Source: a bacterium
GTDB taxonomy: Bacteria; Margulisbacteria; Marinamargulisbacteria; GCA-2716485; JAYNIM01
Direction of reading: 5' to 3'
NCBI GenBank assembly: GCA_038109055.1
Contig: JAYNIM010000003.1
Coordinates: forward strand, 12,671 to 76,670
Length of the DNA stretch: 64,000 nucleotides
The position numbers and the translations under genes were made by a program. Below the pieces are notes generated by a model, which did no database searches, had not been told where the DNA came from, and saw nothing but the letters and a program-made list of their open reading frames with translations. Each line of letters opens with the position of its first letter. Positions within the stretch are counted from its first letter, which is position 1. Positions 57,407 to 59,236 of the stretch are shown here, piece after piece.

Positions 57407-59236
57407 TTATTTTTTTTGAGTTGCTAGGTATATTTCGGAGGAAAAATTATTTTTCATTTCTTGATAAGCAATTTCTTTGGCTTCTTTTTTCCTATTTGAT
57501 TTTCCTGTTGATTGAAAGGTCTTTGTTTCTGTATTTATACTTAAGGTAATGATAAAAAGTGGAAGTTTATTTTGACCTATCATGGTATTTGTTTGGTAAG
57601 ATATGTTCCATTTTCTTTTTTGACATTGTTCATTTAGTTCACTAATAATATTTTTTTCTTTTTCTTGAGGTGTTTTTATTGTTAAGGTTTCTTTTTCGTC
57701 TTTGTTTACTAGAGAGTTCGTCAGATAGTGTTGAATGAATCCGACAGCGGCTAAATCTTTTGCTAATTGTTTTCTTTTATTTGTATATGGTAACTTTGTT
57801 GTTTTTCTTTCTTTATTTATTGTAATACAAACCCTCATTATAAATATCATGTTTGTAGATTCGTCTATTAATTCATAATTATCCCAAGTGGATGTGATTT
57901 GACAGGCAATGTTAATGATTTGAATAGCTAACCCAGGTGCGTTTTTTAGATAGTTTAGTATATTTTCTTGAATGTTTTTAAAACTAGGGTTTTCTTTTGA
58001 TAAAATCGTTAGTTGATATAGTTGTGTGGGGAGAATTGAGTTTTCGTAAAGATGTTTTTTTAAATAATTTTCTATATTAGTAAGGACGTTTTGTTTTGAG
58101 AGAAGTTCGTCATTAATGGCAATTGATAAGTCATTTGAGTTTTGAATGTTTTGTGTATGATGTAACTTTATTTGGTAGTTATAATTGCTATTTGTTTTAG
58201 ATATATTTTTTTGTAGTATATTGAGATGATTTGATAGGAGTAGTAATTCATTTTTTTGATAGGGGATGGGGGTATTTTTGATTAGGCTCTTTAGAATCCG
58301 TAAATTGACAAGACTAGGGTATCTATAGATTGGGTCACAGATGAATAGATAACAGGCTAAGTTTTGAGAAAAAAAAGGGGTAGGGTTAGTGTCATAAAAT
58401 GCTTTGTTAGAGATTTTTTTTAATTTGTTATTATAACTTGTAATATTATCTGTAGATAAGGTCTCTTTTTCTAATAAATCAATTAACTCTTGTCTTTTAT
58501 CTTCGGTAGTATTGAGACTATGATTGTAAAAGAGACCGGGCGTGTCACTTTGTTGAAAAAATGATGCAATTAATTGCTGGCACAATAGTTGAAATTCTTG
58601 TTGTATTAAAAAGCATTCAAAGTTTTTATGGCTGTCTAATGGTGTTAAAATACCTAATTCTTGACAGGTGAGACCATTTTTATTGTTAAAGTAACAGAGT
58701 GCTTTTTTTTCTTTTCTTTGTTTGTATAAGCCATTTGCTATTTTTAAGCATAAGCGTATATGTTTTGTACTTTGTTGGTCTGTGTTTTGTTCTAATAAGT
58801 GATTAGCTGCTTGGAAAGAGAGTGTTAATGATTGTTTTAATGAGGCTTGAGAAAAATTACATGTTTCTGGTAAAAAATCTTGATTGAGATGACAGGATAT
58901 TAATATGCAGGAATTTTTGTTTTCTGTTTTTAATGATAGTTGAGTATCTATTAAAGGTTCAGGGAACATGAAGATGGGATTTGTATTAGAAAATCGGGTA
59001 AACCCAATAAGACGTGCTTGACGATCTAAAAGGTCGTCTCTTTTTATAATTTCAGTGATATCGGATAGTAATATATTTAATTCAAAACCGTTTTCTTTTT
59101 CTTTTGTTGAATAGGCCATGTTAGTTGCCTTAGAATATGGATGCTCTATGCTGGTTGCACAGTCATTAAATGTACGCTCTTTCATAGAAAAAACAATTTG
59201 TTTTTCTTTTGTTGAAATGGTCAAATAACCCTCCAA
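57407..59236 (-). CDS. RNase II/R (RNB)-like protein with apparently degenerate catalytic motifs and two C-terminal dsRNA-binding domains
   Basis: Motifs colinear with E. coli RNase II: TFNDCATSIEHPYS (vs TIDSASTEDMDDAL), ELNILLSDITEII (vs LTVAIADPTAWI), QEFQLLCQQLIASFF (vs ECMIAANICAARFL) and CYLFICDPIYRYPSLVNLRILKSLI (vs [25 protein letters not shown]). dsRBD-like segments end ...NKRKQLAKDLAAVGFIQHYL and ...GKSNRKKEAKEIAYQEMKNNF. Confidence 0.6.
   Translation of the reverse strand: MEGYLTISTKEKQIVFSMKERTFNDCATSIEHPYSKATNMAYSTKEKENGFELNILLSDITEIIKRDDLLDRQARLIGFTRFSNTNPIFMFPEPLIDTQLSLKTENKNSCILISCHLNQDFLPETCNFSQASLKQSLTLSFQAANHLLEQNTDQQSTKHIRLCLKIANGLYKQRKEKKALCYFNNKNGLTCQELGILTPLDSHKNFECFLIQQEFQLLCQQLIASFFQQSDTPGLFYNHSLNTTEDKRQELIDLLEKETLSTDNITSYNNKLKKISNKAFYDTNPTPFFSQNLACYLFICDPIYRYPSLVNLRILKSLIKNTPIPYQKNELLLLSNHLNILQKNISKTNSNYNYQIKLHHTQNIQNSNDLSIAINDELLSKQNVLTNIENYLKKHLYENSILPTQLYQLTILSKENPSFKNIQENILNYLKNAPGLAIQIINIACQITSTWDNYELIDESTNMIFIMRVCITINKERKTTKLPYTNKRKQLAKDLAAVGFIQHYLTNSLVNKDEKETLTIKTPQEKEKNIISELNEQCQKRKWNISYQTNTMIGQNKLPLFIITLSINTETKTFQSTGKSNRKKEAKEIAYQEMKNNFSSEIYLATQKK

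Follow-up and report, generated by a model that had tools for sequence, protein, structure and literature searches.

A probable RNA-binding pseudo-exoribonuclease from a dsRBD-bearing RNB family, encoded beside a plausible replication origin in a Marinamargulisbacteria contig

The window analysed here is a 64,000-nt stretch of contig JAYNIM010000003.1 (assembly GCA_038109055.1, positions 12,671 to 76,670), assigned to the Marinamargulisbacteria. Our subject is a minus-strand open reading frame (ORF) in it that is present in the ORF list at 57407..59236 (609 aa, TTG start) and encodes a protein with a ribonuclease II/R-like RNB domain followed by two domains of the kind that binds double-stranded RNA (dsRBDs). 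A second TTG, at 59224, is the likelier start, since it is preceded at 5 nt by a GGAGG motif and is where the identical NCBI protein P0001 begins (605 aa, 'MAG: RNB domain-containing ribonuclease [bacterium]'). Residue numbering throughout refers to this 605-aa form. The gene and its parts are as follows.

57407..59224, minus strand: coding sequence, with a TTG start, of the putative RNB-dsRBD pseudo-nuclease (605 aa); a TTG at 59236 bounds the maximal ORF (ORF list, sequence and P0001)
59230..59234, minus strand: Shine-Dalgarno-like GGAGG, lying 5 nt before TTG 59224 (seen in the sequence)
58265..59167, minus strand: RNB domain, residues ~20-320, fold kept and catalytic centre lost (Pfam, AlphaFold2, Foldseek)
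59111..59152, minus strand: degenerate motif I, 'SIEHPYSKATNMAY', residues 25-38 (MAFFT family alignment)
58319..58339, minus strand: degenerate motif IV, 'CDPIYRY', residues 296-302, with S497D and R500Y, then D504S at residue 304 (alignment)
57941..58264, minus strand: helical linker, residues 321-428, common to the intact family (AlphaFold2 secondary structure)
57716..57940, minus strand: dsRBD1, residues 429-503, divergent (AlphaFold2, Foldseek, hhalign, and Pfam on homologous segments)
57413..57655, minus strand: dsRBD2, residues 524-604, canonical and the best conserved part of the protein (Pfam, alignments, domain-wise identities)

The RNB domain was matched by Pfam (PF00773) along almost its entire profile (HMM positions 10-325 of 326; E 1.5e-32, 113.6 bits versus a cutoff of 29.3). 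An AlphaFold2 (AF2) model built from a 78-sequence family alignment (mean predicted local distance difference test, pLDDT, 90.8; predicted TM-score, pTM, 0.87) consists of an RNB core (~1-320), an all-helical region (324-428) and two alpha-beta-beta-beta-alpha units (431-501 and 526-604). When the model was compared with the PDB using Foldseek, the core matched RNase R (5xgu, E 5e-18) as well as RNase II, Dis3L2, Rrp44, Dss1 and Ssd1 (7am1, E 3e-13). Pfam, the motif alignment and Foldseek together confirm that the four RNB motifs are collinear with those of E. coli RNase II, as a preliminary description made by eye from the sequence had stated. The same description had found the usual cold-shock domain (CSD) and S1 flanks not to be evident, and no CSD or S1 domain was detected in the protein by Pfam or NCBIfam; the RNB domain begins ~20 residues from the N-terminus. 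Scores against the NCBIfam equivalogs were far under their cutoffs (RNase R TIGR02063, 50.6 versus 597.85; RNase II TIGR02062, 46.0 versus 641.9), and a Pfam scan of the linker segment (residues 321-428) gave zero matches.

Over its C-terminal ~180 residues the model matched tandem-dsRBD proteins (TARBP2, Loquacious-PB, TRBP dsRBD1-2 and MLE; 7zpk_C, 8dfv_K and 5n8l), with 170-194 aligned columns, about the span of two dsRBDs. The downstream unit is a canonical dsRBD: residues ~527-590 match Pfam dsrm (PF00035; E 8.7e-10, 39.5 bits versus a cutoff of 23), its predicted elements are ordered as expected (helix 526-536, strands 540-549, 555-564 and 569-576, helix 579-604), and it aligns with the Loquacious dsRBDs, including the conserved KKxAK RNA-contact motif ('RKKEAK'). 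The upstream unit (helix 431-443, strands 447-454, 461-469 and 472-475, helix 485-501) retains only the first and last lysine of that motif (K485, K489), and its segment in the window protein gave no direct match to Pfam dsrm. Modelled alone, this segment reached a pLDDT of 97.6, and its best Foldseek matches were nearly all dsRBDs (e.g. DCL4, query TM-score, TMq, 0.66, root-mean-square deviation 2.0 A); the E-values were weak (0.012 or higher, with HPF/YfiA also among the matches), as is usual for a domain of 85 residues. In relatives, 9 of 40 segments homologous to dsRBD1 were matched by Pfam dsrm, and a profile of dsRBD1 segments aligned to the dsRBD2 profile by hhalign with 98.7% probability (E 3.3e-16). 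Since the predicted fold, Foldseek, Pfam in relatives and hhalign agree on the upstream unit, the two C-terminal dsRBDs proposed from pattern matching are confirmed, both in fold and in homology.

To place the catalytic centre, 151 family proteins were aligned with E. coli RNase II (rnb from NC_000913) using MAFFT. In this 152-sequence alignment the E. coli motif I 'TIDSASTEDMDDAL' pairs with 'SIEHPYSKATNMAY' and not with 'TFNDCATSIEHPYS', so that D201, D207, D209 and D210 correspond to E27, A33, N35 and M36, while in motif IV S497, R500 and D504 correspond to D297, Y300 and S304. The register chosen by eye lay 7 residues too far upstream; what had been claimed of it, that the aspartate cluster is missing, holds in either register. 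In residues 1-62 the only aspartates are D21 and D55, the latter being the conserved D230, at the right spacing from motif I in the family register; with only two aspartates there, the motif is unrecoverable by any re-gapping. The reading of SPIRKY as DPIYRY was exactly right (58319-58339). Profile and family alignment had been named beforehand as the check that might overturn a loss or remodelling of the Mg-dependent centre, and they do not bring the aspartates back. Structural positions are retained (D230, A245, T251, P263, S272, L273, R347, E370, G372, E391, H416, Y492, P498 and K/R501), and the equivalents of Y253, Y313 and F358 remain aromatic (F, F and Y). Judged from these alignments, the hydrolytic centre has none of its four metal-binding aspartates left and is also without its essential arginine.

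Word-indexed homologue searches recovered next to no homologues, whether the query was the protein or the 78-sequence alignment (8000 scored candidates were nearly devoid of family members), probably owing to the Asn/Lys-rich query. Because these searches are nearly blind here, 1.84 billion representatives had to be searched exhaustively with HMMER, which gave 2863 matches at E<=1e-3, 78 of them at E<=1e-30. Family counts below are drawn from the best ~150 of the 2863 matches, 147 of which lie outside the degenerate group described below. The majority of these top 150 have lengths of 600-800 aa and align along the whole profile (~positions 28-610). When 40 members were scanned with Pfam, RNB was found in all 40 and dsrm in 39, while CSD or S1 domains were found in 0 of the 40; both dsRBD regions are covered in 140 of the 147, and members carry two or three dsRBDs, many having the third. 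A tblastn search with P0008, which aligned 606 aa at E 7e-45, was consistent with full-length collinearity, and the window protein is itself nested inside the family, its RNB domain, helical linker, dsRBD1 and dsRBD2 being collinear with the other members over the whole length. Named members include 'RNB domain-containing ribonuclease' WP_155748975.1 of Scytonema sp. UIC 10036 (P0026), one from Streptomyces sp. NPDC048659 (L008) and one from an uncultured cyanobacterium (L009); many others are metagenomic. A GTDB genome scan with family patterns recovered mostly ordinary RNase R, with L008 and L009 alone full-length, and PADLOC gave no defence-system match on eight family members. In the literature searched, no relevant paper on an RNB-dsRBD fusion was found, and the family is large and apparently uncharacterised.

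Asp is present in 143 of these 147 proteins at each of the four motif I columns, and R500 in all 147. The intact relatives presumably act as dsRNA-directed 3'-5' exoribonucleases. The preliminary description had regarded an RNB core with tandem dsRBDs as an architecture unknown from characterised bacterial RNases; it is no one-off, and since the family is large, with an active site that is intact in nearly every member, the unusual thing is the dead group rather than the fusion. As a separate matter of annotation, the intact proteins P0009, P0017 and P0020 (JGI) and their relatives are auto-labelled 'ribonuclease R', yet the CSD and S1 domains that RNase R has are missing from those scanned; on domain content, the label is a systematic over-call for RNB-dsRBD proteins.

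Among the matches listed, degenerate representatives number only four: the window protein, P0002, P0004 and P0005. P0002 lies on a bacterial contig of Picozoa COSAG01, a single-cell co-assembly in EukProt (COSAG01 identified from PMC8599508). Scans with subclade patterns found no relative in GTDB genomes and no match in JGI metagenomes. In the neighbour-joining tree the four are monophyletic (stem 0.99), with the intact P0006 as sister, and their root-to-tip distances are 3.1-3.5, versus a mean of 2.12 +/- 0.15 (maximum 2.50) for intact members. Across the four members D201 is replaced or kept as E/D/D/Q, and D207 reads A/A/A/N, D209 N/N/N/Y, D210 M/L/F/L and R500 Y/Y/Y/S. The window protein, P0002 and P0004 have A33, N35, Y300, '(D/E)HPY' and 'DPIYRY' in common at an overall identity of just 42-43%; P0005 lacks these residues ('VQALKN', 'NLFSRY'), and its dsRBDs are still 45-64% identical. 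Within the subclade the dsRBD2 motifs 'ISE(L/I)NE.CQ' and 'GK..RKK(E/Q)AK' are invariant or almost so (n=4). Domain-wise identities in the two groups were as follows.

4271 intact pairs of comparable divergence: RNB 41%, dsRBD1 22%, dsRBD2 29% identity; dsRBD2/RNB ratio mean 0.70, maximum 1.29
6 subclade pairs: RNB 21-43%, dsRBD1 32-53%, dsRBD2 45-64% identity; dsRBD2/RNB ratio 1.32-2.53

The RNB domain is the best conserved domain of the intact members and the least constrained one in the subclade. By this measure the dsRBDs have taken over from the RNB core as the site of sequence constraint in the subclade, and the window protein is, as far as its sequence tells, a catalytically dead, fast-evolving offshoot of the RNB-dsRBD family.

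The gene has a GC content of 29.2%, and its product contains 10.4% Asn and 9.6% Lys; the A/T and Asn/Lys richness noted earlier is real, but the values are near those of the adjoining DnaA. At such a composition a random 605-codon frame would stay open with a chance of ~3e-21, and a frame of 600-700 codons is intact in four lineages, those of all four subclade members. Across the three lineages with DNA the protein is 42/33/33% identical, while in the same genomes RecF is 40/38/37%, DciA 39/34/36%, ZnuA 28% and DnaA 71-73% identical. Since the frames are intact in four lineages and the divergence resembles that of RecF and DciA and is less than that of ZnuA, the sequences argue for a gene kept up by function and not decaying. 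The only close pair, P0004 and P0153, differ by 1 nt, too close for a nonsynonymous-to-synonymous rate ratio (dN/dS). A promoter and terminator scan did no better than on shuffled sequences, and Rfam and tRNA scans of the whole window gave zero matches.

With moderate confidence, and relying on sequence, model and analogy together, we propose that the protein is a non-catalytic RNB-dsRBD pseudo-exoribonuclease that binds structured or double-stranded RNA. The suggestion of an RNA-binding pseudo-enzyme had been made in the preliminary description, and it is consistent with the catalytic loss, the dsRBD folds and the missing CSD and S1 domains. RNA hydrolysis by the RNase II/R mechanism would be gone. 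dsRBD2, through its invariant KKxAK motif, and dsRBD1, through two lysines of that motif, would dock on an RNA helix, and the vestigial RNB channel, in which the Y253, Y313 and F358 positions are aromatic in the window protein, may still take a single-stranded 3' tail uncut. The likely result would be that target RNAs are sequestered, protected or regulated, or that other factors are recruited, by analogy with what is thought for Ssd1 and Zam. Several points weigh against this proposal. Where the active site used to be, three of the four subclade sequences have acquired a set of conserved polar residues, (D/E)27-H28-P29-Y30, D297 and Y300, which might form another catalytic or ligand site; the beta1-beta2 loop of dsRBD2 has Lys in place of His ('KLP'); dsRBDs may also make protein-protein contacts; and the subclade totals four sequences.

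That last property of dsRBDs bears on a reading in which the protein is mainly a protein-protein scaffold or regulator, its dead RNB core and/or dsRBDs binding another RNase or RNA-processing factor, which we consider unlikely. The GPxH loop is missing from the divergent dsRBD1, as in the protein-binding 'type B' dsRBDs. In Anabaena, RNase II is reported to bind RNase E and to modulate it (PMC7144899), which we count in favour of a scaffold. Set against this, the canonical RNA-contact motifs are invariant in dsRBD2, and no conserved partner gene adjoins the locus, which is flanked by ZnuA and, at its opposite end, by dnaA or unrelated genes.

A remodelled active site, leaving the protein a nuclease or other RNA-modifying enzyme with altered chemistry, is also unlikely. 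It would account for the exact agreement of '(D/E)HPY' and 'DPIYRY' among three members (the window protein, P0002 and P0004) despite their low overall identity, and for the RNB fold and several channel aromatics being kept. P0005, however, has none of these residues and nonetheless keeps its dsRBDs, and constraint on the subclade proteins is weakest in the RNB core. Furthermore, no earlier case of RNB activity in the absence of the aspartates is known to us, and the RNA complex 2ix1 used the D209N mutant of E. coli RNase II. In a specific version, which we regard as a long shot, the old RNB site would have been rebuilt from (D/E)27-H28-P29-Y30, D297 and Y300 into a new catalytic or ligand centre, making the protein a dsRBD-guided enzyme or sensor; if true, this would be chemistry unprecedented for an RNB fold, and it would belong to a bacterial lineage encountered together with marine protists (the Picozoa COSAG01 relative).

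That the gene is a functionless, decaying relic in a reduced, AT-rich genome is very improbable: evolution in the subclade is accelerated, the genomes have 26-29% GC and the catalytic residues are gone, but the frame is intact in four lineages against the odds given above, the dsRBDs are strongly conserved, and divergence is not above that of recF and dciA. An alignment artefact behind the loss of the catalytic residues can be dismissed as next to impossible, since, although the by-eye register of motif I was truly wrong, the family alignment and the aspartate count in residues 1-62 (D21 and D55 only, D55 pairing with conserved D230 at a fitting spacing) refute it, and R500Y sits in the unambiguous context of 'PIYRY' versus 'PIRRY'.

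The proposed RNA-binding pseudo-enzyme can be compared with several known systems. E. coli RNase II and RNase R (PDB 2ix1, 2id0 and 5xgu) have a homologous RNB core with the four motifs collinear (Foldseek E 1e-15 to 1e-18), whereas the window protein is without CSD1, CSD2 and S1, has D201, D207, D209, D210 and R500 replaced, and has gained the helical linker and two dsRBDs. The intact RNB-dsRBD family has the same architecture, linker and dsRBD1/dsRBD2, but nearly all of its members have an intact active centre, with RNB as their best conserved part, and the window protein is dead. Yeast Ssd1, a Dis3L2-derived pseudonuclease (7am1) and a non-catalytic RNB protein that acts as an RNA-binding regulator (PMC8934651), has also lost its catalytic residues. 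Its likeness is confined to the RNB core (E 3e-13); it is eukaryotic, of the Dis3L2-type CSD1-CSD2-RNB-S1 layout, without dsRBDs, and lost activity independently. Cyanobacterial Zam (sll1910 family) is closer in being a bacterial RNB protein with a degenerate active site, from a phylum usually put beside Margulisbacteria (PMC9145284), but it has a CSD1-CSD2-RNB-S1 layout with conserved CSD1 cysteines (PMC9145284), whereas the window protein has no CSD or S1 and is part of a dsRBD-bearing family. As the CSD-CSD-RNB-S1 layout is common to Ssd1 and Zam, the window protein belongs to neither group. Its C-terminal 180 residues match tandem dsRBDs structurally, but in TRBP, Loquacious, MLE/DHX9 and bacterial RNase III the dsRBDs go with RNase III, a helicase or no catalytic domain, and are not known to go with RNB.

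Non-catalytic RNB proteins are thus already known, from Ssd1 and, in bacteria, from Zam; what would be new here is such a protein in a dsRBD-bearing architecture. It would be a further non-catalytic bacterial RNB protein after Zam, of independent origin and other architecture, which suggests that conversion of RNB nucleases to RNA-binding regulators is recurrent. The parent family is arguably the more useful lead. It is a broad bacterial family in which the OB-fold RNA anchors of RNase II/R are swapped for two or three dsRBDs, and its members are candidates for a 3'-5' exoribonuclease activity directed at dsRNA, of which little is understood in bacteria. Taken with the dead branch, the intact family also offers a natural matched active/inactive pair with which to probe an RNB scaffold that only binds RNA.

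The gene ends at an intergenic region that precedes dnaA.

56749..57406, no strand: oriC-like intergenic region separating the gene from dnaA; its DnaA boxes lie at 56940-48, 57052-60, 57252-60 and 57363-71

This 658-bp gap holds four of the six TGTGNATAA boxes in the window, including a perfect TGTGGATAA box at 57252-57260, and a 38-nt unit with a double box (TTATCACA(A/G)GTTATACACAG) occurs both at 57036-57073 and at 57347-57384. GC skew turns here, its minimum falling nearby at ~54-56 kb. From its sequence features, 56749-57406 is plausibly oriC. The gene had been said to end ~40 bp from a DnaA box, and the nearest TGTGNATAA (57363-57371) indeed lies 35 nt past the stop codon.

The local gene order is response regulator-KaiC, KaiC, ZnuA, the RNB-like gene, [oriC], dnaA, dnaN, recF and dciA. 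The P0005 gene lies 52 bp upstream of dnaA; in the P0004 lineage convergent aldehyde dehydrogenase and proline dehydrogenase genes are inserted between the RNB-like gene and dnaA; and relatives with ~60% DnaA identity have different genes upstream of dnaA and no RNB-like gene around it. Adjacency to oriC looks like inherited synteny in one small lineage and is probably incidental. We set aside a function related to oriC, as dnaA adjacency is common to the three closest lineages and absent in more distant relatives, and nothing ties it to function.

The named relatives of the window's DnaA belong to Candidatus Margulisiibacteriota (55-60% identity), and the nearest DnaAs (72-73%) are on the same contigs or assemblies as the degenerate proteins, whose loci all have 26-29% GC. 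Two bacterial contigs of COSAG01, NODE_61 (P0002; 197x coverage) and NODE_9 (P0162), are catalogued as eukaryotic proteins; the DnaA there is 72% identical to that of the window, and the contigs probably come from a prey, symbiont or co-sorted bacterium.

Directly upstream of the RNB-like gene is a ZnuA-like solute-binding protein with a Lys-rich N-terminus (59341-60267, minus strand), which keeps this position in the P0004 lineage at 28% identity. It is followed by a KaiC-like ATPase (60417-61133, plus strand) and a response regulator-KaiC fusion (61130-62239, plus strand) whose start overlaps the stop of the former; the pair is syntenic and highly conserved in the P0004 lineage (L002), at 66% and 78% identity.

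Elsewhere in the window there is a composition step at ~29.0-29.5 kb, from 42-51% GC upstream (AddAB, UvrC and GatAB genes) to 24-38% downstream, which could reflect a horizontally acquired block or a chimeric contig in the metagenome-assembled genome (MAG). The RNB-like gene lies well within the low-GC part, and the contigs of its relatives are low-GC too. Two long ORFs, at 2896-7455 (minus strand, 1519 aa) and 37568-42775 (plus strand, 1735 aa), have no NCBIfam match at E<=1e-5. The maximal AddB-like (20403-23306) and AddA-like (22945-26088) ORFs on the plus strand overlap by 362 nt, which is probably not real and due to an over-extended start of the second. Two loci in relatives were also of note near dnaA. 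In a relative with 62% DnaA identity (L090, 16197-21332), a type I-F-variant CRISPR-Cas system (Cas1, Cas2-3 fusion, Cas7fv-like and Cas5fv) lies just downstream of dnaA-dnaN-recF-dciA, and in a Margulisiibacteriota MAG (L088, 2762-7622) three tandem Collar-domain proteins, followed by an HTTM protein and by a VKGC-lumenal-domain protein resembling vitamin-K-dependent gamma-carboxylase, lie upstream of dnaA.

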